From Candidatus Lindowbacteria bacterium RIFCSPLOWO2_12_FULL_62_27 (GTDB lineage Bacteria > Lindowbacteria > 2-12-FULL-62-27): a stretch of 64,000 nt of DNA. This document shows positions 11,506 to 33,738 of the stretch, piece by piece (the first letter of the stretch is position 1; the number at the start of each line of letters is the position of its first letter). The position numbers were made by a program, and so were the translations under genes. The notes under the pieces are model-generated. The model was given only the letters and a program-made list of their open reading frames with translations. It was not told where the DNA came from and ran no database searches. The stretch is taken from contig MFPR01000004.1 of the NCBI GenBank assembly GCA_001784175.1, positions 1 to 64,000 of the forward strand, written 5' to 3'.

Positions 11506-11507
11506 TC

Positions 11508-12971: not shown

Positions 12972-13172
12972 ATGCGCCGCATGGCGCTGTTCACGTTTGT
13001 GTTCGCCGTTGTCTCGCCGGCCTTCGGCTGTCCGCTCTGTTTCGGTTCAACGCCCTATGAGTTGGGTCTCTACTGGTCGGTGCTTTTTCTTCTTCCCGTG
13101 CCGTTTGTCATTGTCGGTGTGCTGATCGCATGGATTCGCCGTCAGTCTGACGGAAATATTAAGGAGGGATAA
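12972..13172 (+). CDS. Small membrane protein with CPLC motif
   Basis: Signal-like N-terminus, AFGCPLCFG, C-terminal TM; fills the gap in the operon. Confidence 0.65.
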   Translation: MRRMALFTFVFAVVSPAFGCPLCFGSTPYELGLYWSVLFLLPVPFVIVGVLIAWIRRQSDGNIKEG

Positions 13173-13175
13173 AAC

Positions 13176-17750: not shown

Positions 17751-18970
17751 TGCCAATGACTCTCATCTATTTCCTCCGGGACGCCTTGCGTGAAGCCACG
17801 AGCGGCGGGCGCAAATATCATCTCTGGATGGGCGCGCTCACGCTCGTCATGCTGACCGGCGCCTACGCCTACTCGATCCAGTTCCGCGAAGGGCTTGGCG
17901 TGACCGGCATGACCGACCACGTGAGCTGGGGTCTCTACATTTCGAACTTCACCTTTCTCGTCGGCGTCGCAGCGGCGGCCGTCATGCTCGTGATGCCGGC
18001 CTACATCCTGCACGACGTCGATTTCAAGCGCGCGGTGATGCTGGGCGAGGGCGTGGCGGTGTCGGCGGTCGTCATGTGCCTCTGTTTCGTGATGGCGGAC
18101 ATGGGCGGGCCGCACCGGGGATGGCATCTCATCCCGGTGATCGGCTATTTCAACTGGCCGCAGTCGATGCTGACGTGGGACGTGATCGTGCTGAACGGAT
18201 ACCTCGCGCTGAATCTGCTCATTCCATTTTACATCCTGTTTTCGCATTATCGAAACCGCGATCCCAATCCAACGCTCTACGTGCCGTTCGTGATCCTGTC
18301 GGTTTTCTGGGCGGTCAGCATTCATCTCGTGACCGCCTTCCTGTACGCGGGGCTCGTCGCCCGGCCGTTCTGGAACAGCGCCCTGATGGGGCCGCGGTTT
18401 CTCGCGTCCGCCTTCGCCGCGGGCCCGGCGCTCATCCTGCTGGCGCTCGCCGTCATCCGCTCGCAGACGTCCTTCGCGATCGAGGACACGACGATCCGGA
18501 AACTCAGCCTGGTCATCACGGTGGCCGCGCAGATCAATCTGATCATGCTGGGCTGCGAGGTCTTCAAGGAATTCTACTGGCCATCGGAACATAGCGCGAG
18601 CGCCGTCTACCTCTTTTTCGGCCACCACGGCCATCATGCGCTGAATCCATGGATATGGACGTCCATCGCGATGAATGTCGTCGCCACGGGGATCATGACC
18701 GTTCACTCGGCGCGGCGATGCCATCACCTCCTGTATCCCGCCTGCGTCCTGCTGTTCACGGCGATCTGGATCGAAAAGGGCATGGGACTCATCGTGCCGG
18801 GATTCATCCCCTCCCCGCTCGGCGAGCTGGTCGAATACATGCCGACATGGATCGAGGTCGCGGTGACGCTGGGCATCTGGGCGACCGGGCTCTTCGTCTT
18901 CACCGTGCTGGTCCGGGTCGCCCTGCCGATTGAACTTGGGCGCCTCCGGGCGCCGGGGACGAATCGATGA
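17750..18970 (+). CDS. NrfD/PsrC family membrane anchor
   Basis: TGMTD.VSWGLYI.NF.F.VG; DMG.P.R; P.S...WD; about 10 TM. Confidence 0.9.
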   Translation: MPMTLIYFLRDALREATSGGRKYHLWMGALTLVMLTGAYAYSIQFREGLGVTGMTDHVSWGLYISNFTFLVGVAAAAVMLVMPAYILHDVDFKRAVMLGEGVAVSAVVMCLCFVMADMGGPHRGWHLIPVIGYFNWPQSMLTWDVIVLNGYLALNLLIPFYILFSHYRNRDPNPTLYVPFVILSVFWAVSIHLVTAFLYAGLVARPFWNSALMGPRFLASAFAAGPALILLALAVIRSQTSFAIEDTTIRKLSLVITVAAQINLIMLGCEVFKEFYWPSEHSASAVYLFFGHHGHHALNPWIWTSIAMNVVATGIMTVHSARRCHHLLYPACVLLFTAIWIEKGMGLIVPGFIPSPLGELVEYMPTWIEVAVTLGIWATGLFVFTVLVRVALPIELGRLRAPGTNR

Positions 18971-20361
18971 CAGGCGCGCAACCCGTCGTGCGGTCCGGCA
19001 GTCCGTGGCCTTTCTGGACAGGGCTTGCGTTGCAGCTCATCCTTGCGTGGGCGGCGGTTTTCGGCGCCTACGAGCTGATCGAACGATATTATCTTCAGGA
19101 TACCGGCCCCGCGCTCTTGCATCGGCTGCACATTCTGCGCGGGAGCGGCACGTCATTTTTGCTGGCGCTTCTGGCCGCGCGCGCCATGTACCGGCGGCGG
19201 GAGGAGCTGATCGTCGAGGCGAAGAACCGGCTGGCGGCGGAAAAATCGCGGCAGGACGAGATTCTGGCGGGACTCGGCGCCGGCCTCATCGTGCTCGACG
19301 CGTCGTTCAAGGTGACGTACGCGAACGCCCAGGCGCAAAAATGGCTGGGGACGAAACTCGCGAATTGCCTCTGCATCGTCGAGGATTGCCCGATGGGCCG
19401 GGACACCGGCGTGTGCCCGGCGCGGGTTTCGGCGCTTCAAAAAGGATGGGTGTCGTTTGAGGAAAAAATTGAAACGCCCGACGGGACGCGATACCTGTAC
19501 ATCACGGCGTCGCCCATCGGAGGCGGCAACGGCCGGCCGCCGGACGCCATCATCGAACTCGTTCAGGACATCAGCCCCATCAAGGCCATGGAGGCGAAAC
19601 TCCGGCAGACGATCATGGCCGCGCGCGTCGGCGCCATCGCCGCCGGCGTCGCACACCAGCTCGGCAATCCCCTCGCCTCGCTCACCGCGGCGGTCGAACG
19701 GCTTCTCAGCCTGGGCGCCGACAAGCAGGACGCGTACGCGCGATACCTGCGGCGCATCGAGGTCGAGGCCGAGCGGGCCGTCCACATCGTGCGGTCCCTG
19801 ATGGACCTGGCGCGCCGCGTCAAGGACCAGGAGTCGCGCCCGGAAGACTGCACGCATCAGGCCGACCTTCACGCAACCGTCACCGAGGCGGTCGAGATCG
19901 TTTCGGAAACATACAGCGAGATTCGTTCCTTTCTCAAACTCCATCTGCCCGACCATCCCCTGCCGGTCCGGGCCAACCCGACGGACGTCCGGGAGGTGCT
20001 GGTGAACCTGCTGGAAAACGCCGTCGAAGCCATGGTGGGTCGCGACGCGCAGCGGCTGGCCATCCATGCCGCCGAGGACCGCGGATCGGTGCTTCTGCAG
20101 GTGTGCGACAGCGGGCCGGGCATCGAAGAGGCGGCTCGCGACAAGATTTTCGAACCATTTTTCTCGACGCGCCGGGAGGGCACCGGCCTGGGCCTTTATC
20201 TGTGCCGGCAGATCGTCGAATCCTACGGTGGAGAGATCCGCGCGGACAACCTGCCGGCCGGCGGTGCGCGGATTCTGGTCCGGTGGCCGGCCGGTCGGCC
20301 GGCCGGTCGATCGCCGGTCGCCGGTGGCGCGCACACCGGCGCGCAGGCGGATCATCCATGA
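18967..20361 (+). CDS. PAS-containing sensor histidine kinase
   Basis: 2 TM, PAS, AHQLGNPL, NLLENA, DSGPG, GTGLGL. Confidence 0.92.
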   Translation: MTGAQPVVRSGSPWPFWTGLALQLILAWAAVFGAYELIERYYLQDTGPALLHRLHILRGSGTSFLLALLAARAMYRRREELIVEAKNRLAAEKSRQDEILAGLGAGLIVLDASFKVTYANAQAQKWLGTKLANCLCIVEDCPMGRDTGVCPARVSALQKGWVSFEEKIETPDGTRYLYITASPIGGGNGRPPDAIIELVQDISPIKAMEAKLRQTIMAARVGAIAAGVAHQLGNPLASLTAAVERLLSLGADKQDAYARYLRRIEVEAERAVHIVRSLMDLARRVKDQESRPEDCTHQADLHATVTEAVEIVSETYSEIRSFLKLHLPDHPLPVRANPTDVREVLVNLLENAVEAMVGRDAQRLAIHAAEDRGSVLLQVCDSGPGIEEAARDKIFEPFFSTRREGTGLGLYLCRQIVESYGGEIRADNLPAGGARILVRWPAGRPAGRSPVAGGAHTGAQADHP

Positions 20362-21758
20362 CCTCGCCCGCGCAGGCGTCGCAATCGGCGCCGTCGGCGC
20401 CTCATCCGCACCCGCGGCCGCTCCGGATCCTTCTGGTGGACGACGAGGCGGGCTTTCGGGAAATGGCGGCGGAACATCTCGAATCGGCCGGCTTCGAGGT
20501 CGAGCAGGCGGGCGGCGGGAGAGAGGCGCTGGAGATTCTGAAGGTGCGGACGTTCGATCTGGCGGTATTTGACCTCAAGATGCCCGACATGAGCGGGCTG
20601 GACCTTCTGACCAGGGTAAAATCCGACTTGCCCGAAATCGAAGTCCTCATTCTGACGGCGCACGGCGGCGTCGACACCGCGGTTGAGGCGATCCGGCGCG
20701 GCGCGCACCATTACCTTGTCAAACCGATCAAGCTCGCGGAACTGCAGGCTGCGCTGGAACGCGCGGCCGAGAAAACCGCGCTGAACCGCCGGCAGGCCGG
20801 GGAAACGGCGGTCCGCGCGCACCGTCAAAGCTACAGGGCCGGCGAATTTCTAGCGACGGGTCCGCGCACGCGGGAGCTTTTGGAAACTACGGCGCACGCC
20901 GCGGCGGGCGCCTTTCCGGTCCTGATCGAGGGCGAGACCGGCACGGGCAAGGAGCTTCTGGCGCAGTTCGTCCATCGGCGATCCCCGCGACATCAGGGCC
21001 CGATGGTGGCAGTCAACTGTGGGCTTCTGTCCGAAAGTCTCCTCGAGCGGGAGCTGTTCGGTCACAGCAGGGGCGCGTTCACAGGCGCCAGCGACAGCCG
21101 CGCGGGTCTGTTTGAGGCGGCCGACGGCGGCACCCTCTTTCTGGACGAGATCGGAGAGGCCAGCCCCAACGTGCAGGTGGCGCTGCTTCGCGCCATCGAA
21201 ACCGGCATGTTCCGGCGGATCGGGGAAGTTCGGGAGAGGTTTGCGGATGTGCGCATCGTCGCGGCCTCCAATCAGCCGCTGGCGAAATCCGCCGAAACCG
21301 GCAGGTTCCGCACCGATCTCTATCATCGCCTGAACGTCGTGAACCTTCGCATCCCGCCGCTGCGCGAGCGGCCGGAGGAGATCGTGCCGCTGGCCGAGAC
21401 GTTTTTGTCCCGGCTGTGGCCCGAATCCCGGTTTCTGGACGACGCCCGGGCGGCGCTCCAGTCCCATCCATGGCCCGGGAACGTCCGGGAATTGCAGAAC
21501 GCCATCGAACGCACCGTCTATTTATGCCGCGCAGGATCGGCCGGAAAAATGACGGGAACCGTGACGGCGCAGATGCTGGGCCTGACCGCCGCCGTGCCGC
21601 CGCCGGGTCCGGCCATGGATCTCGACGGGGCTGAACGCGCCCACATCCAGGCCACGATCCTGCATTTCAACGGCGACAAGCGCGCCGCCGCGGGCGCGTT
21701 GGGCATCACGCTCCGGCATCTGTACCGCAAACTCAAGAAACACGATTTGAGCGTCTGA
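20358..21758 (+). CDS. sigma54-dependent response regulator (NtrC family)
   Basis: REC domain; [23 protein letters not shown]-terminal HTH. Confidence 0.94.
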
Positions 21759-22251: not shown

Positions 22252-22941
22252 ATGGCCGAGCTGACGAAGTTCTGGTACCTGAAACGGATCAATCTCTTTT
22301 CCGAGCTGACGCGCGAGGATATGCAGATGATGGCCGACATGACCACCATGTCCTCCTTTCCCGCCAAAGAGGTCCTCTATTTTCCGGGCGACCCCTCCGA
22401 TTCGGTCTTTCTGCTTAAAGAGGGCAACGTCAAAATTTCTCAGCTCACGCCGGACGGAAAAAAGCTGACGCTCGACATCCTCAATCCCGGGGAACTTTTC
22501 GGCGAGGCCGCGATCACGGGGCCGGACGCGGAACGGGACACGATGGCGGAGGCGCTCACGCCGGTGCATGTGTGCGTCGCGTCGAAAGACCGGTTCATGC
22601 AGTTTCTGGATCGCCGGCCGGCCCTCGTGATGCGGATCACCAAGCTCATGGGATTTCGATTGAAGAGAATCGAGACCCGTCTGCAGTCGCTCCTGTTCAA
22701 ATCCGTGCCGGCGCGCCTCGCGGAACTGATCCTCCGGCTGGCCGACGATTACGGCAAAGAGACGCCGAACGGCGTCGAGATCAGCCTGAAACTGACGCAT
22801 CAGGAATTGGCCGAGCTGATCGGATCCACCCGCGAAACCACCAGCGCCATCATGGGCCGGTTCCGGGACAAAAAACTGATCGACACCGACGGCCGCCGGA
22901 TTAGCGTTCTCAACCGGCAAAAGTTGTCCGCTATCGTCTGA
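22252..22941 (+). CDS. Crp/Fnr family transcriptional regulator
   Basis: cNMP domain (G.VKI, PGELFGE); LTHQELAELIGSTRET HTH. Confidence 0.93.
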   Translation: MAELTKFWYLKRINLFSELTREDMQMMADMTTMSSFPAKEVLYFPGDPSDSVFLLKEGNVKISQLTPDGKKLTLDILNPGELFGEAAITGPDAERDTMAEALTPVHVCVASKDRFMQFLDRRPALVMRITKLMGFRLKRIETRLQSLLFKSVPARLAELILRLADDYGKETPNGVEISLKLTHQELAELIGSTRETTSAIMGRFRDKKLIDTDGRRISVLNRQKLSAIV

Positions 22942-22953: not shown

Positions 22954-22989
22954 GACCGAAAACCGGCCGGGGCCGGCCGGTTTTCGGTC
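22954..22989. terminator. Perfect 17-bp stem hairpin, probable terminator
   Basis: gaccgaaaaccggccgg-gg-ccggccggttttcggtc right after the last gene of the run. Confidence 0.65.
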
Positions 22990-23108
22990 GGTCGTCCACC
23001 CCCTCCTCAAAATTTGCCATCCCTGTCCATTAAACTTTTCGCCTTCCGATTCAATCTGTTACGCTCGATTTTTCAGCGCGTCCCGGAGTATGCACGGCAT
23101 TTGCAACT

Positions 23109-23630
23109 ATGCGGGTGATGAGACAAGCGATGTTCGTTCTGGTCGTGGTTGTTCTGTTTGCCGTGGCGGGCGTTTGGGCGAATGGTCGGAGCGCCGACGA
23201 GCCGCAGACGCGCATCATTCACATGACGGCGCGGCAGTATGCGTTTGAGCCGTCGACGATTCGCGCGAATCTCGGCGATACGCTGGTGTTTCGATTGCAG
23301 TCGGCGGACGTCATGCACGGGTTTTATCTGGAGGGACATGATGTCGAGGCGGTCATCACACCGCAGAGTCCCTACGTCGAGCTTCGCCGGCCGTCGGAAC
23401 CGGATGCGCGGCCGCAAAAAGTGGAGGAAATAGTCGTGACGGCGGACCGGACGGGCAAGTTCCGTTACCGGTGCTCCCACACGTGCGGGACGATGCATCC
23501 ATTCATGATGGGCGAACTTGTCGTGGCGCCCAACCGCCTGTTTATCGCCTCAAGCTGGGGGATCGTCGGCCTGACGGCAGGCCTTGCGGGTACCGCCCTG
23601 TCGTCGAGGAAAAAACAAAATGGCGCGTAA
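23109..23630 (+). CDS. CuA-type cupredoxin with C-terminal membrane anchor
   Basis: Signal peptide; DVMHGF; CSHTCGTMHPFM (CxxxCxxxHxxM). Confidence 0.82.
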   Translation: MRVMRQAMFVLVVVVLFAVAGVWANGRSADEPQTRIIHMTARQYAFEPSTIRANLGDTLVFRLQSADVMHGFYLEGHDVEAVITPQSPYVELRRPSEPDARPQKVEEIVVTADRTGKFRYRCSHTCGTMHPFMMGELVVAPNRLFIASSWGIVGLTAGLAGTALSSRKKQNGA

Positions 23631-24111
23631 ATTTTCGGATTTGACGCCGGAAGAAGTCTTGCGGGTCGCCATTGGGGTTGAGATTGCCAACGGGGAGAGG
23701 CTGCGGACATTTGCGGACATGTTTTCTCAACAGTCGCCGGAAGCGTCGTCTGTTTTCAAGGAAATGGCGGAGGAGGAGGATCAGCACAAGGCTGTGCTGG
23801 TGGCGAGATACGCGCAAATCTACGCCAAGCTGGCCGACCCATTGCCGGAATCCGAAATCTCGGATGTCCTGGAGGCCCACGATCTTCAGGATGCGGAGCA
23901 TTTTATTTTCGACGATATGGACGCCCGCGCGGCGCTCAAAGCGGTGTTGGCGGCGGAGAATGTCGCGATGGATTTTTATCGCCGCGCCGTTCCTACCGCC
24001 GCCACGGATGAGCTGCGCGCGGTTTATGCGGAACTGGCCGATGGCGAGGCGGACCACGTCCGGCGCGTTCAGGAGCGGTTGGCGGCGCAGGGGATGCGAG
24101 ATGCCGGATGA
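23620..24111 (+). CDS. Rubrerythrin/ferritin-like diiron protein
   Basis: AI..E, MAEEEDQH, AE.....FY, LADGEADH motifs. Confidence 0.85.
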   Translation: MARKFSDLTPEEVLRVAIGVEIANGERLRTFADMFSQQSPEASSVFKEMAEEEDQHKAVLVARYAQIYAKLADPLPESEISDVLEAHDLQDAEHFIFDDMDARAALKAVLAAENVAMDFYRRAVPTAATDELRAVYAELADGEADHVRRVQERLAAQGMRDAG

Positions 24112-25589
24112 ATGCGCTCGAAACGATCGAGCGGCGGAGCGCCGCGGCGCCGACGGGATTACCCGAACCGTCCAAGCGCACGTTCCTGACCGGCCGGCGA
24201 ATGGAACTGTTCGAAAAATTCCCCCGGCTCTACTGGCTGGTCACGCGGCGGTGGTTTCAGTTTGCTGTCGTGGTCCCCAACCTGCTTTTCTTCTACGCGT
24301 TTCTGATCGCCGGCGTGTTTGGATCTCCGGTCGGCAACCGGAACATCATCATCATTTTTATCTGGATTCTCTGGTGGTTCGCGCTGATTACGGCGCTGGT
24401 GCCGTTCGCATCGCGAGTCTGGTGCACCGTGTGTCCCCTGCCGTTTTTCGGCGACTGGATCCAGCGCCGGGCGCTCATCAATGTCCGAACCGGCCGAACC
24501 TGCGGGCTTCAAAATCAAATGTACGGATTAAACAAGAAGTGGCCGAAGGCCCTGTCCAACATCTGGCTTCAGAACATCGCATTCCTGGGTCTTTGCACTT
24601 TTTCCGCCATGCTGGTGACCCGGCCGATCGTGACGGTGTGGGTGCTGGGCAGTCTCATCGTCCTTGCGGCGCTCATGGCGGGGGTCTTTCGCGGGCGAAC
24701 CTTCTGCAATTACGTTTGTCCCATCAGCGGATTTCTGTCGCTGTTTTCCATGACGTCGACGCTGGCGTTGCGGTCAAAGGATCTCGACGTGTGCGCCAAA
24801 TGCAAAACGAAGTCGTGCTCGGTCGGGAGCGACAAGGGCTGGGCCTGCCCCTGGGGCATCTACATGGGCAAACTCGATCGCAACAATTATTGCGGGCTGT
24901 GCATGGAATGCGTCAAATCCTGCCCCAACGACAACATCGGGTTGTTCCTCCGGCCGGCGATGTCCGACACGCGGATCAAGGGGTACGACGAATCCTGGAA
25001 GGCGTTCATCATGCTGACGCTCGCGGCCGCCTACTCGATCGTTTTGCTCGGGCCTTACGGAATCGTGAAGGACTTCGCGAACGTCGCCGAGGTCGGCGAC
25101 TGGAAGGGATTTGGAATCTATGCCGGCGGGCTGTGGTTGACGGCGCTGGCGGCGCTGCCGGCCGCGTTCGCCGCATGCGTGTGGATCGGACGGCGTCTTG
25201 CCGGTCGAAGCGACCTTGGGCAGAAAGAAATATTTCTGGGACTGAGTTACGTCTTCGTTCCTATGGGCCTTTTGGCGTGGATCGCGTTCAGCTTTCCCCT
25301 CATCATGATCAACGGCTCGTACATTCTGAACGTGATGTCGGATCCGATGGGTCGCGGCTGGGATTTGTTCAGGACGGCGCAAATTCACTGGTCGCCCATT
25401 CTGCCGGAATATGTCGGTTGCATCCAGGCGCCGCTCCTTTTCCTCGGCGCCTTCTACGCGATTCGCGCCGGATACAGGTTCGCGCTCGAAAAAACAGGGA
25501 CACCGGCCGTCGCGGTTCGGCTGGCCGCGCCCGTTTCGATTCTCGTTACGGCGATCACGCTCGCGTTTCTGAAGCTGTTTGTGGGATGA
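24108..25589 (+). CDS. Polytopic 4Fe-4S membrane protein (NapH/NosR/CcoG-like)
   Basis: WCTVCP, FCNYVCP, CAKC....C, CP, CGLCMEC..SCP; many TM helices. Confidence 0.85.
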   Translation: MNALETIERRSAAAPTGLPEPSKRTFLTGRRMELFEKFPRLYWLVTRRWFQFAVVVPNLLFFYAFLIAGVFGSPVGNRNIIIIFIWILWWFALITALVPFASRVWCTVCPLPFFGDWIQRRALINVRTGRTCGLQNQMYGLNKKWPKALSNIWLQNIAFLGLCTFSAMLVTRPIVTVWVLGSLIVLAALMAGVFRGRTFCNYVCPISGFLSLFSMTSTLALRSKDLDVCAKCKTKSCSVGSDKGWACPWGIYMGKLDRNNYCGLCMECVKSCPNDNIGLFLRPAMSDTRIKGYDESWKAFIMLTLAAAYSIVLLGPYGIVKDFANVAEVGDWKGFGIYAGGLWLTALAALPAAFAACVWIGRRLAGRSDLGQKEIFLGLSYVFVPMGLLAWIAFSFPLIMINGSYILNVMSDPMGRGWDLFRTAQIHWSPILPEYVGCIQAPLLFLGAFYAIRAGYRFALEKTGTPAVAVRLAAPVSILVTAITLAFLKLFVG

Positions 25590-25590
25590 C

Positions 25591-25656
25591 GGCGACATGG
25601 ATGACGCCGTACCCGGAGTCGGGAATTCTGCGACACAGGGACGTGGAGCAGCCGAC
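25591..25656. repeat. Intergenic GGATG-loop double hairpin
   Basis: ggcgacatggatgacgcc ... cacagggacgtg, same loop words as the 21894 element. Confidence 0.5.
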
Positions 25657-25668
25657 GGAGGGTGGCCC

Positions 25669-26172
25669 GTGGAAAAAATAGGAGTGATTCTGACGGTGGC
25701 GGTTTTGATTCTGACGCCGGTCGGCATGATCGCCGCGGATCGGCACTTTGCGTCGGGCGAACCGGCGGACGTGACGTTCACGCTGACGGGCGTGTCGGAC
25801 GGCGGCGTGTGGACGGAGGAGGCGGTCGTCGGACACAACTACTGGCGCCGGACGCCCAAGCCTGCGCGGCTCGTCGCGCGCGCGGGTCAGAAGGTGCGCA
25901 TCCGGCTCCAGAGCGCCGATGTGACGCACGGGTTCAGCATCCCGGACTTGGATGTCGGCCCCATCCTGATCGAACCGGGCCACGTCGTCGAAGCCGTGTT
26001 CACGCCGGAAGAGCCCGGCGAATATCTGTTTCAGTGCACCACGCGATGCGGCAAGTGCCATGAAGAAATGCTCGGCAGTCTCGTCGTTCTGGGCGAAGGC
26101 GAAACCCTTGAGAACTACCCGGGCGGCCTCATCAAGCCCAGAACCAAATGTCTGCTTCACGGGAGGTCGTGA
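25669..26172 (+). CDS. CuA-type cupredoxin with N-terminal TM
   Basis: GTG after ggagg; DVTHGF; CTTRCGKCHEEM. Confidence 0.8.
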   Translation: MEKIGVILTVAVLILTPVGMIAADRHFASGEPADVTFTLTGVSDGGVWTEEAVVGHNYWRRTPKPARLVARAGQKVRIRLQSADVTHGFSIPDLDVGPILIEPGHVVEAVFTPEEPGEYLFQCTTRCGKCHEEMLGSLVVLGEGETLENYPGGLIKPRTKCLLHGRS

Positions 26173-26173
26173 A

Positions 26174-26890
26174 ATGAAAACCGGAAAATGGATCGGGCGC
26201 GCCGGTCTGGCCGGCATGATTTTGTTGTCTTTCAATGTGGCCCATGCCGTCGAAAACGGCGGGATCGTCTCCGGCGCCGTCACTTATAAGGGCAAAGGCC
26301 GGCCAGCGAATCTCAAGGTGGATCACGACCTCGAGGTCTGCGGCAAACATCCGATCCGGGACGAATCGCTCCTCGTGGCGGCGGACGGCGGATTGGCCAA
26401 CGCCGTGGTGTGGCTGGAAGGCGTTTCGGGAGGAAAAGAGATGCCGACATCGGAGGCGGCCATGGATCAGTCGGGATGCGCCTACGTTCCGCACGTGTTG
26501 GCCATCGGCGTCGGTCAAAAGATTCTTTTCAAGAACAGCGATGCGGTGCTTCACAATATCAACAGTTTTCCAAAGGAGAACCGGCCCTTGAACCTCTCAC
26601 TCCTCGCCGCCGGGCAGGGAAGGCCGCTCAAGCGTTCGTTTCCGCTGGCGGACGAAATCAAAGTGACCTGCGACGCGCACAAGTGGATGAGCGCGTGGAT
26701 CGTTGTTCGGGACAATCCGTATTTCGCGGTGACGGATTCTAAGGGCCGTTACAAAATCGCCGACATCCCGCCCGGCAAATACCGGCTGGTCGTTTGGCAC
26801 GAAACCGCCGGCCGGATGCAAAAAGATATTGTCGTACAACCCAAAAAGGCCGCGACGGAAAATCTTGCCCTGCCGGCGGCGAAAAGATGA
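26174..26890 (+). CDS. Secreted cupredoxin/carboxypeptidase-regulatory-like protein (type-1 Cu motif)
   Basis: Signal peptide; DQ.GC.Y.PHV; HNIN; CDAHKWM; PPGKY.L.VWHE. Confidence 0.8.
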   Translation: MKTGKWIGRAGLAGMILLSFNVAHAVENGGIVSGAVTYKGKGRPANLKVDHDLEVCGKHPIRDESLLVAADGGLANAVVWLEGVSGGKEMPTSEAAMDQSGCAYVPHVLAIGVGQKILFKNSDAVLHNINSFPKENRPLNLSLLAAGQGRPLKRSFPLADEIKVTCDAHKWMSAWIVVRDNPYFAVTDSKGRYKIADIPPGKYRLVVWHETAGRMQKDIVVQPKKAATENLALPAAKR

Positions 26891-27999
26891 ACGGTCGGCG
26901 CCGGGGGTTTCTCTTGCTTTCCGTCACCGCGCTGATTTCGTGCGTCGCACTCGTCTGCGAACGGACGGGTTTCGGCGAGGAGCCGTACAAACTGGAGCCC
27001 CTGCCTCCGGCGCAAAGCGTAAACCCGGAACAGGCGGCGCTGGGTCGCCGGCTGTTTTTCGATCCGCGGCTTTCCGGCGACGGATCGATGTCCTGCGCCA
27101 CCTGCCACAAACCGGACGCCGGATGGGCGGACGGCCTGCCGCTGTCGATCGGGTACCCCGGTTCGCTCTACTTCCGAAACACGCCGACTGTGTTGAATGC
27201 GGCGCACGGCGCCTATTCGTATTGGGACGGCCGGCTCCCCGCCGCTGATCTGCCGACGGTCGTAAGGGATCATCTGACCGAAGCACATTTTCTGCAGTTG
27301 GACGGCCGGTTGGGGATCGAACGCCTTCGGCAGATTCCGGAATATGAGGAAGGATTTAAGAAAGCCTTCGGTGGCGTGCCGGGCTACGGTAAAATTCTGA
27401 ACGCCGTCGCCGCCTACCTCAAGACTCTGCGGTCCAAAAATATTCCGTTCGACCGATTCCTGGCCGGAGAGGAATCGGCATTATCGGCCGACGCCAAAAC
27501 CGGCATGGATCTATTCAAGGGCAGGGCCGGCTGTATCCGCTGTCACAGCGGCGGCATGCTGAGCGACGGCCGATTCCATGCCACAGGCGCGCCCGAAAAT
27601 CCGGACGTGTTCGCAACGCCCGAACGGCACATTACATTCCGTCGGTTTCTCAAAACGCTCGGCGTTTCCGATTACGCGACCCTGCGTGAGGATATCGGCC
27701 GCTCCGCCGTCACAAAGGAACCGCAGGACCGAAACGCGTTTCGGACGCCGACCTTGCGCGAACTCACGCGCACCGCGCCGTACATGCATAACGGGACTTT
27801 CAAATCGCTGGACGACGTAGTTGAGTTTTACAATCGCGGCGGGGGAAAAGAAAATCGCGCCGGACTCAAACCCCTCGGCCTTTCATCCCGGGAGAAAAAA
27901 GCCCTCGTCGAATTTCTGAAATCCTTGTCGGGCGACGAAGTCCTCGACGATCCCGGCCTCAGTCCCATGTATCAAGTCCGAACGCTGGGGAAAAACTAA
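26887..27999 (+). CDS. Diheme cytochrome c peroxidase family protein (IdrP-like)
   Basis: LGRRLFFDPRLS, SCATCH, RNTPT, WDGR, CIRCH, FRTPTLR, PYMHNG. Confidence 0.9.
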   Translation: MNGRRRGFLLLSVTALISCVALVCERTGFGEEPYKLEPLPPAQSVNPEQAALGRRLFFDPRLSGDGSMSCATCHKPDAGWADGLPLSIGYPGSLYFRNTPTVLNAAHGAYSYWDGRLPAADLPTVVRDHLTEAHFLQLDGRLGIERLRQIPEYEEGFKKAFGGVPGYGKILNAVAAYLKTLRSKNIPFDRFLAGEESALSADAKTGMDLFKGRAGCIRCHSGGMLSDGRFHATGAPENPDVFATPERHITFRRFLKTLGVSDYATLREDIGRSAVTKEPQDRNAFRTPTLRELTRTAPYMHNGTFKSLDDVVEFYNRGGGKENRAGLKPLGLSSREKKALVEFLKSLSGDEVLDDPGLSPMYQVRTLGKN

Positions 28000-28000: not shown

Positions 28001-29314
28001 ATGGCGCAAACACGGAGGGGTCATAGCTGCAGTTTGTCCATTCACCTCCTCTCCCCCCGCAGGGGGGAGAGGATTGAGGTGAGGGGGGCAACTGGCGTTC
28101 GGCCACCCTCACCCCTACCCTCTCCCGCCGAAAGCGGGAGAGGGAGACAGAGTCAACAGCAACAGAGGGGTCATACTTGCAGTTTTGCAGTTTTGGCTGC
28201 GCTGGTGACAGTACTGATTGTCGGATGTGGGAAAGGCGCGGTTGAACCGCAACATGCTGTTGACCCGGAATTCCCGCCGCTGGCCGCGCTCGGGCCCGTC
28301 TCCGTGCCGCAGGACAACCCGATCACGCCGGCCAAGGTCAAACTCGGGCGGCTCCTCTTTTTCGATCAGCGCACGTCCGGCGACGTTTCGACCTCGTGTA
28401 AATCCTGCCACACGCCGGAACTCGGCTGGGGCGACGGCCAGGCCATCTCGCGGGGATATCCGGGCACGCGGCATTGGCGCAACTCTCAGACCGTCGTCAA
28501 CTCGGCCTATCTCACCAAATTGTTCTGGGGCGGCGAGGTCACGTCGCTGGAGAGCCAGGCCAACAGCGCCATCACGGGCAATCTCGCCGGAAACGGCGAC
28601 CCCGTGATGATCGAAGAGCGGCTGGCGCAGATTCCCGAATACGTCGCATTGTTCAAAGAAGTCTTCGGCGTCGACCAGCCGACGTACAATCTTGCGCTGA
28701 AGGCCATCGCAACATTCGAGCGCGCCGAGGTCGTGGACAACAACACGCCGTTCGACCGATACATGCGCGGAGACAAAAACGCCATTTCGCCGTCGGCCGT
28801 GCGGGGAAAGACATTGTTTGAAGGAAAGGCCAACTGTATCCGCTGCCATAACGGGGCGCTGCTATCAGACGAAAATTATCACAACTTGGGAGTTCCGCCG
28901 CCGCCGCAGTTCGAAAAGGACGTCCTCATGCAGGTGTCCCTCCGATACCAGCACTACAGCCGCGGCGTGCCGGAAGAGGTGTACCTGAAGGCCGACCGGG
29001 ATCTGGGTCTGTACTACACAACGAAGCGCGAAGAGGACAAAGGCCGGTTGCGCACACCGCCGCTTCGATACATCCGATACACGGCGCCCTACATGCACAA
29101 CGGCGTGTTCGCGACGTTGGAGAAGGTCGTCGATTTCTATAACAAAGGCGGCGGAGACGACCCGGCCAGGAGCATACTTCTCGCGCCGCTGAATCTCACA
29201 CCGCCTGAAAAAGCGGATCTTCTCGAATTCCTCCAGACCTTGAGCGGCCCGGAAATTCTCATGGAACCGCCGGCCATGCCGGAATACAAACCCATTGAAG
29301 TGGGGAGGCGATAA
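28001..29314 (+). CDS. Second diheme cytochrome c peroxidase family lipoprotein (IdrP-like), with a repeat in its 5' end
   Basis: Lipobox IVGC; CKSCH, CIRCH, PYMHNG. Confidence 0.9.
   Translation: MAQTRRGHSCSLSIHLLSPRRGERIEVRGATGVRPPSPLPSPAESGRGRQSQQQQRGHTCSFAVLAALVTVLIVGCGKGAVEPQHAVDPEFPPLAALGPVSVPQDNPITPAKVKLGRLLFFDQRTSGDVSTSCKSCHTPELGWGDGQAISRGYPGTRHWRNSQTVVNSAYLTKLFWGGEVTSLESQANSAITGNLAGNGDPVMIEERLAQIPEYVALFKEVFGVDQPTYNLALKAIATFERAEVVDNNTPFDRYMRGDKNAISPSAVRGKTLFEGKANCIRCHNGALLSDENYHNLGVPPPPQFEKDVLMQVSLRYQHYSRGVPEEVYLKADRDLGLYYTTKREEDKGRLRTPPLRYIRYTAPYMHNGVFATLEKVVDFYNKGGGDDPARSILLAPLNLTPPEKADLLEFLQTLSGPEILMEPPAMPEYKPIEVGRR
28042..28146. repeat. Palindromic REP-like element inside the ORF 5' end
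   Basis: Similar to 8976-9096; flanked by imperfect direct repeats gaggggtcata..tgcagttt. Confidence 0.85.
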
Positions 29315-29317: not shown

Positions 29318-29869
29318 ATGGACGTCCAGACACCCTGCGTGAACCGCCGCCAATTTTTGCTGGCCGGCGCAGTCTCGGCGATGACGGTAACGCTTGGCTC
29401 GCTCTTCAAAGGCCGCGTGTTCGCCGCGGACGAGCACAAAACCGCGACCGTCTACGGATTTGAAAAGAAATGGATCGCCAAACTTTCGGAAATCAAAACT
29501 GGCGACACGATCGTGTTCCTGTTTCCGCGCGAAGACGCCCATTCGCTCTGCACGCTCTACAAACTGGGCGTCCGGGCCGGAGGCGGCATCGGGCCGGATC
29601 AGGACATCGTCGCTTTCAGCGATCTGTGCACCCACATGGGCGGGCTTTTGCGCGGCAACGTTGATTTCAAATCCGCGGTTGCCGGACCGTGCCCCATGCA
29701 CCTGACGACGTTCGACCTGCGGCGGCACGGCATGGTCGTGAGCGGCCAAGCCACGCAGAACCTGCCGCAGATTGTGCTCGAAACCGACGGCAACGATGTT
29801 TTCGCCGCCGGCGTCGTAGGACTCCTCTACGGCCACCATAATAATATGGAGAGGCGGGACCGGGCATGA
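29318..29869 (+). CDS. idrB: AioB/IdrB-like Rieske subunit
   Basis: Tat RRQFL; GGIGPDQDIVAFS; CTHMGG and CPMH (no disulfide Cys); GQATQNLP. Confidence 0.8.
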   Translation: MDVQTPCVNRRQFLLAGAVSAMTVTLGSLFKGRVFAADEHKTATVYGFEKKWIAKLSEIKTGDTIVFLFPREDAHSLCTLYKLGVRAGGGIGPDQDIVAFSDLCTHMGGLLRGNVDFKSAVAGPCPMHLTTFDLRRHGMVVSGQATQNLPQIVLETDGNDVFAAGVVGLLYGHHNNMERRDRA

Positions 29870-32583
29870 CGGCAAAATACGAACCGAAGGACCACGTGCC
29901 TCTGCCTCCGAAAGATGCCAGCGTTCATACGACCGCGTGCGATTACTGCATCGTCGGCTGCGGCTACAAGGCCTTTGTCTGGCCCAAAGGACGTGAGGGT
30001 GGGCCTGGCAAAGCCGAAAACGCGCTCGGGATCGATTTCCCCGTTCCGGCGCTCTCAGGCCGATGGCCCAGTCCCAATCAGCACAACGAGTGTCTGGTCG
30101 GCGGCAAGAAACACAACGTGATCGTCCTGCCCGACCCAGATGCGACCGTGGTCAACCGCGGCGGCAATCACTCGATCCGCGGCGGATGCCTCGCGCAGAA
30201 AGTCTACAACCCCGACGGCCCGACCGCGGACCGGCTCAAGACGCCGCAGATCCGGGTGAACGGAACGCTCGTTCCGGTTTCGTGGGATGCGGCCTTTGAC
30301 ATCATGGCCGGCGTTTCACGGCACGTTCTGTCGAACTTCGGCGAGTCGGCGTGGGCGATGAAGACATATTCCTACCAGTATTTCGAAAACACCTATGCCA
30401 TCTCAAAACTGGCGTTCGAGTCCATCCAGACACCGGCCTATTCGGAGCACGACAAGCCTGGACCCGGCAACGACACGGCCGGCGTTGATGACTCGGGGAT
30501 CGTGACGTTCAGCGCGTCGTATCACGACTGGGAGCAGGCGGCCGTTTTATTTATTTCCGGCACCGATCCCTACGAGACGAAAACGATCATTTTCACGGAA
30601 TGGATGATGAAAGGCGCGCCGAACAAGATCATCATGGTCAATCCCAGGCGCACGGCCGGCGCGGCCTACGCCGAAAAAACCGGCGGGCTGTATCTGCCGA
30701 TCATTCCCGGCACTGACACGATTCTGCATCTGGCGCTGGCGCGGATCATTCTCGAAAACGGCTGGGAGGACCGCGAGTTCATCGATCACTGGATCGCGAC
30801 CAAATGGGAGATCGATTCCGGGTTCGGCCGCGGCCCCCGCAATACGCCGGTGGAGTGGCGGACGACCTGGGACAAAATCGGCGTCACCGATTTCGCCGCC
30901 TACAAAGAATGGCTGCTCGCCCAGCCGTATTCGGACTTGAACACCGCGGCGCAACTGACGGGCATCCCCGCGAAAAAAATCCGGGCGACGGCCGAACTCA
31001 TCGCCAAACCCATCGGCGGCGTACACCCGAAAACGTCTTTTGGATTCGAAAAGGGAAATTACTGGAGCAATAATTATCTGAATACCGCGTCCTTCGCCGC
31101 GCTGGCGCTCCTCTGTGGCGCCGGCAACCGTCCCGGCCGCGTGATTTCGCGTCTCGGCGGCCACCAGCGCGGCTGGGCCTCGAACGCCGCGTCTTATCCG
31201 CGCATCCAGTCGCCGAACAAATACCAGGGCCGGCGAAAACAGGAGATCGATCTGGACCGATGGGTCGAGGCCGGGCATGTCCGCTTTGCCTACGTCATCG
31301 GCACCACGTGGCTTCAGGCAATGGCCGCCAGCCAGGAACTGGCGCGGACATTCCAAAAACTTACGCGGGATAATCCTCATCAGGTTTCGTCATCGGACGC
31401 ATCTTCGGCGGTGGACGCGCTGAAAAAACGCGCCGACTCCGGCGGCATGGTCGTGGTCCATCAGGACATCTATCCGGTTGATCCGATCGCCACCGAGTAC
31501 GCGGACCTCGTGTTGCCGGCGGCCACGTGGGGCGAGGAGGATTTCTCGAGGGCCAACGGCGAGCGGCGGATCAGGCTCTATTCGAAATTTTGCGACGCGC
31601 CGGGCGAGGCCAAACCGGACTGGTGGATCATCTCGGGTTTCGCGCGGAAAATGGGGTTCAAGGATTACGACTGGAAAGATTCGAATCAGGTGTTCGAGGA
31701 GGGCGCGCGATTTTCCCGCGGCGGCGTCCTCAATTATCATCCGCTGGTCTGGTACGCCAAACAAATCGGCATGCGGGGGCATGACGTCCTGCGGGCGATG
31801 GGCACGCGAGGGATTCAGGGGCCGGTTCGGTTTAGAGAGAAACCGACGGAAAACGCCGAGTATCTGGACTACGCCGGATTTTTTTCCTCGCCCAAACGGC
31901 GCGGCATGATCGTCGGCACCAAACGCCTGCACGACCCCGATCACGATTTCGGCGCGCCGGAAGGCCCGACCGTTCACCAAAAATGGCTTTCGGCGTTCGG
32001 CTCGCACAGCGGCAAGGCGCTTCTGCACAAGACGCCGTGGGATTTGTATTCAGATTTTTTTGAACGGATCACGCCCCGCGAGGACGAGTTGTGGGTGACA
32101 AGCGGCCGGATCAACGAGCGCTGGCAGTCAGCATTCGACGATTCTCGGCGGCCGTACATCATGCAGCGCTGGCCCGGGCAATTCGTCGAAGTCCACTCGG
32201 AGGACGCCCAAAAACGCGGGATCGAAAGCGGCGACGAGGTGCTGATCTGGAGCGACGACGTGCTGATTCAAACCGGCGGATTCGTCGCCACCAAAGACGG
32301 CGAGATGACGTACACGGAACTGGAGAAGGCCGGCCGGATCCGGATCGGGCACGGCGAATTCAAAGGCGTGGCGATCGTCACCGATGACATCAGGCCCGGC
32401 GTGGTCTTCGCCGATTTTCTCTGGCCGGCCGCGCCCGCCAACAGCGTCGTCCACCGCGTTCCCGATCCGATCACACTCCGATACCGGTTCAAACTTGGCA
32501 AAGGCAGGATCAAAAAAATCGGCGAATCGCCCTACAAGAAAACGTTCGATGAAATGAGTTTCGCCCCGAGGACGGTGATGTAA
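29866..32583 (+). CDS. idrA: AioA-family molybdoenzyme, most like iodate reductase IdrA
   Basis: VPLPPKDA, CDYCIVGC...HSIRGG [3Fe-4S] motif, KTYSYQYFENTYAI, HDKP...ND, EKGNYWSNNY, GGHQRG; adjacent Rieske gene and two peroxidase genes. Confidence 0.78.
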   Translation: MTAKYEPKDHVPLPPKDASVHTTACDYCIVGCGYKAFVWPKGREGGPGKAENALGIDFPVPALSGRWPSPNQHNECLVGGKKHNVIVLPDPDATVVNRGGNHSIRGGCLAQKVYNPDGPTADRLKTPQIRVNGTLVPVSWDAAFDIMAGVSRHVLSNFGESAWAMKTYSYQYFENTYAISKLAFESIQTPAYSEHDKPGPGNDTAGVDDSGIVTFSASYHDWEQAAVLFISGTDPYETKTIIFTEWMMKGAPNKIIMVNPRRTAGAAYAEKTGGLYLPIIPGTDTILHLALARIILENGWEDREFIDHWIATKWEIDSGFGRGPRNTPVEWRTTWDKIGVTDFAAYKEWLLAQPYSDLNTAAQLTGIPAKKIRATAELIAKPIGGVHPKTSFGFEKGNYWSNNYLNTASFAALALLCGAGNRPGRVISRLGGHQRGWASNAASYPRIQSPNKYQGRRKQEIDLDRWVEAGHVRFAYVIGTTWLQAMAASQELARTFQKLTRDNPHQVSSSDASSAVDALKKRADSGGMVVVHQDIYPVDPIATEYADLVLPAATWGEEDFSRANGERRIRLYSKFCDAPGEAKPDWWIISGFARKMGFKDYDWKDSNQVFEEGARFSRGGVLNYHPLVWYAKQIGMRGHDVLRAMGTRGIQGPVRFREKPTENAEYLDYAGFFSSPKRRGMIVGTKRLHDPDHDFGAPEGPTVHQKWLSAFGSHSGKALLHKTPWDLYSDFFERITPREDELWVTSGRINERWQSAFDDSRRPYIMQRWPGQFVEVHSEDAQKRGIESGDEVLIWSDDVLIQTGGFVATKDGEMTYTELEKAGRIRIGHGEFKGVAIVTDDIRPGVVFADFLWPAAPANSVVHRVPDPITLRYRFKLGKGRIKKIGESPYKKTFDEMSFAPRTVM

Positions 32584-33528: not shown

Positions 33529-33738
33529 ATGTCGAAGGTCCGAACCAATGTTGTTTTGGACGAGCCCCTGGTCCGCCGCGCGATGAAAATTTTGGGCGCG
33601 AAAAGCAAGCGCGAGGCGATTCATACGGCGCTGAAAAAGGCGGTGGAGTTGGGCGCAGTCTATTCGAAGGCCCTTGCGTCGGGCGGCAAGTTGACGTGGG
33701 AGGGGGAACTGCGGCGTGAAGCGCGAATCCGCGCCTGA
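33529..33738 (+). CDS. vapB: VapB antitoxin
   Basis: RTNVVLDE.L...A....G.KSKRE.I..AL; W.G.L motif. Confidence 0.85.
   Translation: MSKVRTNVVLDEPLVRRAMKILGAKSKREAIHTALKKAVELGAVYSKALASGGKLTWEGELRREARIRA

Follow-up and report, generated by a model that had tools for sequence, protein, structure and literature searches.

A stretch of 64,000 nucleotides (nt) from Candidatus Lindowbacteria bacterium RIFCSPLOWO2_12_FULL_62_27 (contig MFPR01000004.1, positions 1 to 64,000 of the forward strand; here called the window) contains five genes at 23109-26890 whose products are two CuA-type copper proteins, a ferritin-like diiron protein, a membrane polyferredoxin, and a type-1 cupredoxin. They lie at the head of an operon that continues with two peroxidase genes and genes resembling those of the Idr system, and a first-pass annotation had proposed that they form an undescribed extension of that system. 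We found that most of the best-matching relatives of this cassette occur without Idr genes nearby. The five genes appear to encode a widespread, unnamed membrane electron-transfer complex with two purple-copper subunits, and the cassette appears to have been wired into an Idr-like operon here without being a dedicated part of Idr.

The operon comprises ten genes, all on the same strand, from CuA1 to a dihaem cytochrome c:

23109-23630, + strand: CuA1, 173 amino acids (aa), with an N-terminal signal or hydrophobic helix, a periplasmic CuA cupredoxin domain, and a C-terminal membrane helix.
Open reading frame (ORF) 23584-24111, + strand: ferritin-like diiron protein, likely start ATG 23620; cytoplasmic, an optional member of the cassette.
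24108-25589, + strand: polyferredoxin, 493 aa with two Fer4_5 stretches (Pfam); the core of the cassette.
25597-26172 (alternative TTG start 25579), + strand: CuA2, one N-terminal membrane helix followed by a periplasmic CuA domain.
ORF 26060-26890, + strand: type-1 cupredoxin, likely start ATG 26174; signal peptide, secreted.
26887-27999, + strand: CCPa, dihaem peroxidase of the MauG/CCP family (Pfam CCP_MauG), in the position of IdrP2.
28001-29314, + strand: CCPb, dihaem peroxidase of the MauG/CCP family (Pfam CCP_MauG), in the position of IdrP1.
29318-29869, + strand: IdrB/AioB-like Rieske subunit bearing a Tat signal (for twin-arginine translocation; Pfam, NCBIfam).
29866-32583, + strand: IdrA/AioA-like molybdopterin subunit (Pfam, NCBIfam; AioA in the PDB at an E value of 6e-80).
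32584-33414, + strand: lipoprotein-type dihaem cytochrome c, the last gene of the operon (Pfam).

These genes are translationally coupled, with spacings of -11 to +7 nt. From CuA1 to the type-1 cupredoxin gene, the junctions measure -11 nt (CuA1/ferritin-like), -4 nt (ferritin-like/polyferredoxin), -11 or +7 nt (polyferredoxin/CuA2), and +1 nt (CuA2/type-1); from there on they measure -4 nt (type-1/CCPa), +1 nt (CCPa/CCPb), +3 nt (CCPb/IdrB), -4 nt (IdrB/IdrA), and 0 nt (IdrA/cytochrome c). The starts of the CuA2, ferritin-like, type-1 copper, and CCPa genes in these figures are our own choice. When the operon was scanned for terminators and promoters, all matches fell within coding sequence and none at a gene junction, so separate transcription of the module is unsupported. 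With gaps of at most 7 nt and no convincing terminator from one gene to the next, the gene layout suggests that the five-gene module and the Idr-like genes probably share one transcript. The first-pass annotation was thus accurate as a description of the locus: two CuA proteins, a type-1 copper protein, a ferritin-like protein, and a polyferredoxin are indeed encoded directly upstream of the peroxidases, each of them where it had been placed, in mostly overlapping genes.

To map the distribution of the cassette, genomes were scanned from the polyferredoxin side. Of its 306 pattern matches, 254 coded for a relative, and the analysis went on with the best 80 loci and their 10-kb flanks; counts of "evaluable" loci below allow for contig ends. 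The best 80 loci carry at least 14 phylum labels: Planctomycetota, Acidobacteriota, Fidelibacterota, Armatimonadota, Binatota, Gemmatimonadota, Myxococcota, Thermodesulfobacteriota, Verrucomicrobiota, Bacteroidota, Ignavibacteriota, Omnitrophota, FCPU426, and Pseudomonadota. One further label, Aenigmatarchaeota, belongs to a 2.5-kb contig (L001) with a bacterial-type cassette of 61% identity that stands beside Planctomycetota rows on the tree; this archaeal label is probably a binning artefact. A CuA gene is located directly upstream of the polyferredoxin gene in 71 of 72 evaluable loci and directly downstream in 73 of 73, and CuA genes flank it on both sides in 66 of 67. Tblastn with the window proteins matched CuA1 and CuA2 in 79 of the 80 loci each, the type-1 cupredoxin in 59, the diiron protein in 34, the sigma-54 activator in 34, the histidine kinase in 33, and each of the four Idr proteins in 5. 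The type-1 cupredoxin was present in 45 of 54 evaluable loci and the diiron protein in 32 of 69. Because the gene set recurs in 80 loci and its metal ligands are conserved, the module goes far beyond a chance assembly.

The usual partner of the cassette is a haem-porin, encoded in 32 of 47 evaluable loci and in 45 of the 80 overall. This protein of about 450 aa has no Pfam match. It forms two clusters, and one CxxCH motif lies within the first 120 residues in 39 of 42 members (32 of 35 in one cluster, 7 of 7 in the other). Its neighbours in the Atlas are porin-like predicted barrels or are named "Cytochrome C family." It may resemble Cyc2-type fused cytochrome-porins. A tblastn search of the window with six members of each cluster (12 in all) gave no haem-porin. 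Other neighbours are less frequent: a YtkA-like protein occurs in 8 of the 80 loci and Rieske, cytochrome b, and cytochrome c genes in approximately 5 to 7. In 8 of the 80, a GltD-like Fe-S flavoprotein that binds NAD(P) has a gene of its own downstream of the polyferredoxin gene, at a median distance of about 3.7 kb from the start of the latter, and several loci have the cassette followed by a Rieske/cytochrome b complex with a GltD-like subunit.

Two of these loci have surroundings of their own. In L062, a gene for a 707-aa protein resembling cytochrome bd subunit I (3331-5454) comes directly after the two type-1 cupredoxins of the cassette and is itself followed by cytochrome c genes; the cytochrome bd-like protein may be another exchangeable endpoint. 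In the Idr-free locus L013, the genes around the cassette (4104-6892 and 13011-13904) encode a bacterial globin, a Crp-family regulator, and three proteins with hemerythrin domains, one of which is ScdA/RIC-like; this hints at an O2- or NO-related setting.

Both CuA proteins retain the residues of a dinuclear electron-transfer site. CuA1 was recognised in Pfam as Cupredoxin_1 (28.4 bits) and COX2 (22.7 bits) and matched the CoxB and NosZ CuA-domain models of NCBIfam weakly; its closest solved relatives are engineered CuA domains of Thermus ba3 oxidase (E = 2.9e-14). CuA2 was recognised as COX2 (32.2 bits). The ligand motif of CuA1 reads H70...C122-x3-C126-x3-H130-x2-M133, all five residues are invariant in an alignment of 42 sequences, and the full motif is kept in 72 of 72 relatives. 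The motif of CuA2 reads H111...C147-x3-C151-x3-H155-x2-M158; the two histidines and two cysteines are invariant (n = 42), and the CX3CX3H pattern is found in 70 of 76 relatives. By their residues, the ligand sets of CuA1 and of the CuA2 copy in the window are both of the COX2 type, His...Cys-x3-Cys-x3-His-x2-Met. The axial position 158 of CuA2 is Met in 31 and Leu in 11 of the 42 sequences (Met in the window), whereas CuA1 always has Met; the potentials of the two sites may thus be set differently. In 40 of 76 CuA2 relatives, but not in the CuA2 of the window, the protein ends in a cytochrome c domain with a CxxCH motif. The operon has no COX1 gene; the nearest one (9805-11505) has a COX2 of its own at 9131-9808.

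In the product of the fifth gene, Pfam recognises only a C-terminal CarboxypepD_reg-like domain, a beta-sandwich, and similarity to plastocyanin by sequence is weak (E = 0.02). The residues H127, C166, H169, and M172 are invariant in 48 relatives, and CX2HX2M is kept in 67 of 69 type-1 proteins. The AlphaFold model, with a predicted local distance difference test score (pLDDT) of 89.6, matches amicyanin, plastocyanin, pseudoazurin, and CuA domains, with a Foldseek template modelling (TM) score, taken on the target, of about 0.7 to amicyanin and plastocyanin. The protein is a type-1 cupredoxin and a probable soluble electron carrier. Among the 120 relatives listed, source names include "plastocyanin," "plastocyanin/azurin family," "carboxypeptidase regulatory-like," "hypothetical protein," and a UniRef name of the rhamnogalacturonan type. 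A relation of the protein to MauL, of the MauL/MauN/MauG set of mau clusters, gained no support: there was no NCBIfam match, and none of these 120 relatives bears that name. Among the aligned type-1 cupredoxins, those of the window, L015, and L062 and the second copy in L008 have in common an insertion of about 30 aa that contains a conserved Cys, and the same four have a clade-specific second Cys just before the first copper-ligand strand. The extra Cys pair of this L008-type/window group could form a disulfide or an additional metal site.

The polyferredoxin has approximately nine membrane helices, the Cys motifs C106-x2-C109-P and C200-x3-C204-P, and a cytoplasmic loop that holds a 2x[4Fe-4S] domain. 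Twelve Cys and no His are invariant in an alignment of 26 sequences. Its scores against models of known families are low: 25.4 bits for NapH/MauN (TIGR02163; cut-off, 213.05) and 19.7 for NapH (PRK09477; cut-off, 234). A Pfam scan found no NapG-like gene in the operon; on the polyferredoxin itself Pfam sees Fer4_5 only, with neither a flavin mononucleotide (FMN)-binding domain of the NosR type nor the FixG_C domain of CcoG/FixG, and no solved relative was found by sequence at E ≤ 1. Among 8,000 scored candidates, 1,265 proteins are close relatives at E ≤ 1e-3, and the best 120 share 56-65% identity with the window protein. A profile search of a 50%-identity representative library yielded 2,943 matches at E ≤ 1e-3, 1,486 at E ≤ 1e-10, and 389 at E ≤ 1e-30.

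The ferritin-like protein, of the rubrerythrin/erythrin kind, matches Pfam Rubrerythrin above its cut-off (4.6e-10, 40.5 bits). It has 163-175 aa, no membrane domain, and no signal peptide. An assignment as the iron exporter MbfA was rejected, as the protein has no VIT1/CCC1 membrane domain and its score for NF045676 of NCBIfam, in the N-terminal domain part of MbfA, is 61.8 bits against a cut-off of 450. The diiron site, E...ExxH...E...ExxH, is complete, with E21, E53, H56, E113, E143, and H146 invariant in 33 sequences. Since the protein is present with or without Idr, its role would be tied to the polyferredoxin complex and not specifically to iodate chemistry.

Structure prediction supports binding of the polyferredoxin, CuA1, and CuA2 as a complex. 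In a three-chain co-fold, CuA2 scored 0.78 against polyferredoxin plus CuA1 in all three runs, and the best of three controls scored 0.00. Contact agreement between runs was at least 86%, and partner pLDDT was at least 77. When the tool was calibrated, 116 of 157 solved complexes and 2 of 215 mismatched pairs attained this mark, counts that are only rough here because our own alignments were used. In the model, the CuA2 helix packs on helix 1 of the polyferredoxin, the CuA2 copper-site loops (105-110 and 149-152) touch the copper-site loops of CuA1 (67-69 and 124-127), and the CuA2 cupredoxin domain with its copper-site loops contacts the conserved periplasmic loops 67-75 and 412-420 of the polyferredoxin.

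Natural fusions join the same partners. CuA1 is fused to the polyferredoxin in L067, L072, L073, and L076. We also surveyed by Pfam scan the 68 longest, offset representatives from the top 150 of the profile search, and 22 of them carry a Cupredoxin_1 or COX2 domain; in a 648-aa Fer4_5 cluster of the Atlas, 13% of members have COX2. A GltD-like flavoprotein module (Pyr_redox_2, with Fer4_20 in six cases) is present on 7 of the 68, and in five, where the search aligned two separate profile stretches, it lies inside the polyferredoxin. P0247 consists of a CuA1-like domain with the CuA motif (45% identity), the N-terminal half of the polyferredoxin (43%), the GltD-like module, and the C-terminal half (38%), with the module placed between the second Cys motif and the [4Fe-4S] domain. 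The Fe-S loop would therefore be cytoplasmic and tied to a redox partner of the pyridine-nucleotide type. Carriers of the module include P0242, P0247, P0257, P0273, P0285, and P0307, most of which have it within the cytoplasmic loop; P0257 additionally has AhpC/TSA at its N terminus. The 68 also include N-terminal fusions to periplasmic domains that would use electrons, namely AhpC/TSA (2), cytochrome c (1), and cytochrome c554 (3), and to domains of copper-binding or chaperone type, namely NosL (1), YHS (4), HMBD (1), and YtkA (1, weak).

We next considered the relation of the cassette to Idr. Downstream of it, the gene order is two peroxidases, the Rieske subunit, and the molybdenum subunit (P,P,B,A), an order reported for idr clusters in PMC8692401 and in the available part of PMC10989891. 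The peroxidases CCPa and CCPb match CCP_MauG at E values of 1.1e-38 and 3.3e-43, and their NCBIfam matches are MauG/MbnH-like, below the cut-offs. The presence of two peroxidases is used to separate Idr from Aio (PMC8692401). "Idr-like" is a fair label for these genes on the basis of their sequences and order. The earlier statement that the described Idr core consists of four genes (idrABP1P2) was also correct.

Idr genes lie within 10 kb of the polyferredoxin gene in 5 of the best 80 cassette loci (4 of the 37 with full flanks), and the other 75 have none. Seen from the cassette side, these numbers do not support the proposal that the module is an extension of Idr. Among the evaluable loci the cassette normally accompanies the haem-porin and not Idr, the very pattern named beforehand as the one that would speak against the proposal, and no locus among the 80 has both. 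In a single window, the adjacency of genes should thus be read with caution as a sign of membership in a system.

All five Idr-adjacent loci are labelled Planctomycetota, and Planctomycetaceae are among the deep-branching carriers of Idr (PMC8692401). They show two gene orders. L008 has that of the window, namely CuA1, diiron protein, polyferredoxin, CuA2, type-1 cupredoxin (twice), P, P, B, A, and cytochrome c, with identities to the window proteins ranging from 36% (diiron protein) to 70% (IdrA). In L043, L053, L058, and L063, P,P,B,A lies upstream and is followed by a fusion of cytochrome c with CuA1, then by the diiron protein, the polyferredoxin, and a fusion of CuA2 with cytochrome c; these loci have no type-1 cupredoxin. 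In these four loci the first CCP gene (84-2678 in L043) encodes multicopper-oxidase domains resembling MnxG fused N-terminally to the peroxidase (for L043, MnxG 9bxa in the PDB at E = 4.9e-83; Pfam Cu-oxidase_3 plus CCP_MauG).

On the polyferredoxin tree (79 rows), the Idr-adjacent label takes three changes, and a single clade of the six Idr-adjacent polyferredoxins was rejected by the approximately unbiased (AU) test (p-AU 0.007). A quick tree placed the window polyferredoxin outside the L008 clade; joining the two was not rejected (p-AU 0.296), and for this reason the window was not counted as a third independent event. Since two gene orders occur and a single origin is rejected on this tree, the link between cassette and Idr looks functional, more than an accident. 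Homologues of the terminal dihaem cytochrome c were found by tblastn in 8 of the 80 loci, directly upstream of CuA1 in the Idr-free loci L013, L015, L019, and L050 and after IdrA in L008. Because Idr-free loci have that cytochrome c upstream of CuA1, the Idr genes in the window and in L008 sit between genes of the cassette.

On balance, we favour the explanation that the five genes form a self-contained, widely distributed cassette linking a reductant on the cytoplasmic side to exchangeable partners in the periplasm or outer membrane. Its core would be the haem-free polyferredoxin of about nine helices, with two [4Fe-4S] clusters and two conserved Cys pairs on the cytoplasmic face and, on the periplasmic face, two CuA cupredoxin subunits, each held by a single-helix anchor. 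The secreted type-1 cupredoxin would serve as mobile carrier, a task that may fall in many relatives to the cytochrome c domain fused to CuA2, and the cytoplasmic diiron protein would be an optional partner of the Fe-S face. The reductant could be quinol or a donor of the NAD(P)H or ferredoxin type. The endpoint would be exchangeable, usually the outer-membrane haem-porin and, here and in a few Planctomycetota, an Idr-like reductase with two MauG-like peroxidases. In the window, electrons might pass from the polyferredoxin through the two CuA centres, in either order, to the type-1 cupredoxin or the dihaem cytochrome c and on to the Rieske subunit IdrB and the peroxidases. Enzymes of the Aio type exchange electrons with azurin or cytochrome c, and bacterial peroxidases take electrons from cupredoxins; the path to the peroxidases and Idr through copper carriers that the first-pass annotation had drawn is accordingly plausible.

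The analysis shows the gene content, the conserved ligands, the synteny, the natural fusions, and the predicted complex; the direction of flow, the donor, the membrane crossing, and the role of the diiron protein we infer. Outward flow is favoured because transfer from the copper centres to NAD(P)+ would be strongly uphill. A quinol-oxidising role is an analogy only, because the NapH model scores 25.4 against 213, and the fusions of relatives point to an NAD(P)H-type cytoplasmic donor at least as strongly as to quinol.

Several observations weigh against this explanation. The NapH score far below its cut-off reduces the quinol link to analogy, and the window has no GltD-like partner, a single weak tblastn match lying inside the MerA-like gene. 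No membrane-crossing cofactor is evident in the polyferredoxin, which has no invariant His for haem in the 26-sequence alignment; its AlphaFold model is moderate (pLDDT 66.2), and a search by fold with that model gave 0 solved counterparts at E ≤ 0.001. To our knowledge, CuA is the site of electron entry in every characterised enzyme that has it (haem-copper oxidases and NosZ), and CuA2 relatives resemble caa3 subunit II in that 40 of 76 have a haem motif. In the published FtrABCD model, electrons are said to run from the cupredoxin to the polyferredoxin, and the haem-porin, presumably like Cyc2-type Fe(II) oxidases, would feed electrons inward. Finally, a candidate sigma-54 promoter at 23090-23105 was discarded, as it has two mismatches and the window contains 21 matches to the pattern against 24.7 expected.

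The same complex could work in the opposite direction, as an electron sink for high-potential periplasmic donors, that is, a branch of oxidase type that has no haem-copper subunit. A haem-porin that, like Cyc2, oxidises Fe(II), or an enzyme of the Aio/Idr kind acting as an oxidase, would feed the cupredoxin or cytochrome c and then the CuA centres. Quinone or the cytoplasmic diiron protein would receive the electrons in the end, and the diiron protein would pass them to O2 or H2O2. Such an arrangement would explain the caa3-like cytochrome c domain on CuA2 in 40 of 76 relatives, the closeness of CuA1 to ba3 subunit II, the complete diiron site, and the layout of haem-porin, cupredoxin, and CuA subunits, which recalls a rus operon; the window also holds arsenic genes, and the Rieske/cytochrome b complex with a GltD-like subunit after the cassette in several loci has the look of an "uphill" branch. 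However, passing electrons from copper centres (typically above +200 mV) through ferredoxin-type clusters to NAD(P)+ would be strongly uphill and against the membrane potential, and GltD-like modules are nonetheless fused into the polyferredoxin of relatives. The diiron protein is missing from 37 of 69 evaluable loci, the periplasmic AhpC/TSA fusions require a supply of electrons, and the P,P,B,A order is that of iodate reductases, not of arsenite oxidases (PMC8692401). We regard an inward direction as unlikely. A role in copper handling is less probable still. Here the polyferredoxin would be a CcoG-like cupric reductase or a copper-insertion factor, and the cassette would serve copper acquisition or cuproprotein assembly, in line with the fusions of relatives to NosL (1), YHS (4), HMBD (1), and, weakly, YtkA (1) among the 68, with the YtkA-like gene in 8 of 80 loci, and with a 776-aa Caa3_CtaG cluster among the Atlas structural neighbours (TM 0.84). 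Complete sets of electron-transfer ligands in CuA1 and CuA2 and the permanent fusion of CuA1 to the polyferredoxin in many relatives fit a stable redox complex better than the pairing of a chaperone and its client. Pfam did not detect FixG_C, a domain of CcoG, on the polyferredoxin, and the haem-porin, cytochrome c domains, and Rieske/cytochrome b neighbours indicate electron flow.

The earlier reading, in which the cassette is a dedicated accessory supplying Idr with an iodate-specific quinol link, now seems very improbable. It gains from the translational coupling to the Idr-like genes, from the same order in L008, and from the silence of the two idr papers searched, in that "cupredoxin" and "quinol" are absent from the text of PMC8692401 and "cupredoxin" and "copper" from the available part of PMC10989891. 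It loses by the 75 of 80 best cassette loci without Idr within 10 kb and by the haem-porin as usual partner. In PMC8692401, moreover, the genes around idrABP1P2 are described as poorly conserved, with metal-resistance genes, including mer, near idr loci, and cytochrome c551 is modelled there as the donor of electrons to IdrAB. We give equally little credence to a sensory role, in which the polyferredoxin would sense how oxidised or reduced the membrane or periplasm is and signal this to the sigma-54 two-component system next to it. Its Atlas structural neighbours do include modules of polyferredoxin type joined to sigma-54 activator or cyclic-nucleotide-binding domains, and 28 of 51 loci have histidine kinase and sigma-54 activator genes close by. 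Sigma-54-type promoter matches (at most one mismatch, GG and GC cores kept) are also enriched in the 5 kb upstream of the polyferredoxin gene, where 10 of the 80 loci have them on the coding strand against 1 in the opposite-strand control. The polyferredoxin of the cassette, however, has no output domain, its gene is part of the operon under regulation, electron carriers flank it or are fused to it, and a separate sensor kinase is present.

The explanation that we favour, a cassette carrying electrons outward to exchangeable partners, can be extended to a bolder claim. The cassette could represent an unrecognised class of bioenergetic complex, a haem-free transmembrane conduit made of a polyferredoxin and two stacked CuA domains that connects NAD(P)H or quinol with exchangeable high-potential endpoints outside the cytoplasm. 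We see this as a real possibility and stop short of calling it probable. If this is true, CuA would have a third setting besides haem-copper oxidases and N2O reductase, and the cassette would be either an alternative to bc1 or alternative complex III (ACIII) or a bacterial counterpart of electron exporters of the NOX/FRE type. The haem-porin would then be the endpoint for extracellular substrates and Idr the one for iodate. The conduit would provide an uncharted route from the cell interior to the periplasm or exterior in many uncultured groups, such as Acidobacteriota, Planctomycetota, Fidelibacterota (Marinimicrobia), FCPU426, and Desulfobacterales, as well as the electron supply for the deep-branching Idr-like enzymes of Planctomycetota. 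It would also bear on how the haem-porin (Cyc2-like) is linked to the inner membrane in models of iron oxidation and extracellular electron transfer.

In a literature search from which subscription journals were mostly missing and in which some queries were poorly aimed, no description was found of a CuA-polyferredoxin cassette or of copper proteins with Idr, and, with the same coverage of journals, no paper contained both "idrA" and "cupredoxin." A Ferrigenium preprint (10.64898/2026.01.22.701106) was set aside as a description of the cassette, since its available part treats other complexes. According to the accessible portion of PMC5371394, a polyferredoxin and three hypothetical genes of "Ca. 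Tenderia electrophaga" (Tel_00495-00510), which may be related to the cassette, respond to electrode potential.

The operon is preceded by three regulatory genes and belongs to what is a respiratory and metal-resistance island:

18967-20361, + strand: histidine kinase (Pfam).
ORF 20103-21758, + strand: sigma-54-dependent response regulator, true start probably later (Pfam).
22252-22941, + strand: Crp/Fnr-family regulator, directly upstream of the operon (Pfam, NCBIfam).
100-3158, - strand: Rieske/cytochrome b complex with multihaem cytochromes.
9131-12969: coxBAC-type genes, with their own COX2 at 9131-9808 and COX1 at 9805-11505.
13176-18970: nap cluster with NapA (979 bits; cut-off, 904), a NapB-like protein, a multihaem cytochrome, and a DsrP/NrfD-like subunit.

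A homologue of the sigma-54 activator lies within 10 kb in 28 of 51 evaluable loci. In L008, a perfect sigma-54 match is found just upstream of CuA1, directly after the sigma-54 activator gene of that locus. For the window, control by the kinase/activator pair is only suggested, because the site there, with two mismatches, is no better than expected by chance. The crp-family gene is followed, at about 22959-22984, by a GC-rich hairpin and a run of T, read from the sequence and not called by the terminator scan; a Crp-family gene is found upstream of the cassette in L013, too.

Within the island, the nap cluster has neither NapC nor NapGH, and its last protein, of 736 aa, combines a DsrP/NrfD-like C-terminal half (417 bits) with an N-terminal extension of about 340 aa. 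The window also holds MobB, with ArsC-like and Crp-family genes before the operon and MerR, MerT-like (MerT/HMA), and MerA-like genes beyond it. Directly after the operon, a PIN-domain gene (33738-34136) is abutted by a preceding 69-aa ORF; the pair (33529-34136) looks like a VapBC-type module, and the small ORF has no NCBIfam match. Several fusions were observed: ArsC-Acr3 at 48295-49815 (- strand), a radical-SAM/SPASM domain joined to an ArsM-like methyltransferase at 56780-59314 (+ strand), and a dihaem cytochrome c joined to EB_dh (the haem b-binding gamma subunit of type II dimethyl sulfoxide reductases) at 61039-62580. The last of these fusions is also present in L062 (7363-8754), downstream of the cassette.

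Among characterised systems, NosR and NosH serve a CuA-bearing enzyme. Like the membrane polyferredoxins NapH/NapG, NosH/NosG, and NosR, which serve reductases in the periplasm, the cassette polyferredoxin has a membrane domain of the Fer4_5 type, Cys-x-Cys-Pro motifs in pairs, and a cytoplasmic loop with two [4Fe-4S] motifs, and its gene is placed next to that of a periplasmic molybdoenzyme. It differs from them in having about nine helices instead of four to six and C-x2-C-P as its first motif; the cassette has neither a NapG-like partner nor an FMN-binding domain, but has two CuA subunits of its own. With 25.4 bits against 213.05 and no NapG/MauM-type partner, it falls outside NapH/MauN (TIGR02163). 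Subunit II of cytochrome c oxidases (ba3 and caa3) shares the H, C, C, H, M ligand set and the single-helix anchor, and the C-terminal cytochrome c domain of CuA2 relatives recalls caa3. In contrast to these oxidases, the cassette has no subunit I and bears its two CuA subunits on an Fe-S protein, and 11 of 42 CuA2 sequences have Leu in place of the axial Met. The likeness to the idrABP1P2 cluster lies in the downstream genes of the window (peroxidases, Tat Rieske, and AioA-like molybdenum subunit in the order P,P,B,A), whereas the copper/Fe-S cassette is outside the described four-gene core and mostly occurs without it.

Iron uptake systems of the FtrABCD/EfeUOB type combine a cupredoxin with a NapH-like polyferredoxin. 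The cassette likewise pairs a periplasmic cupredoxin with a membrane polyferredoxin, with a ferritin-like protein of MbfA-like similarity nearby, but Pfam found neither FTR1 permease nor P19 in the operon, and the copper sites are CuA and not mononuclear. The rus operon of Acidithiobacillus encodes Cyc2, Cyc1, CoxBACD, and rusticyanin (cf. the available part of PMC10654088). The generic cassette matches it in having a haem-porin with one N-terminal CxxCH (39 of 42), a cupredoxin, and CuA subunits; here the polyferredoxin takes the place of CoxA, and the window is without a haem-porin. CcoG/FixG, a cupric reductase, belongs to the same Fer4_5 polyferredoxin superfamily, and relatives of the cassette polyferredoxin are fused to copper-binding domains, but the cassette polyferredoxin has no FixG_C domain and has stable CuA partners. 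The domain families of the cassette are all known, and their CuA-polyferredoxin assembly appears new. There is a substantial chance that the cassette deserves a class of its own beyond membrane Fe-S modules of the NapH/NosR/CcoG kind.

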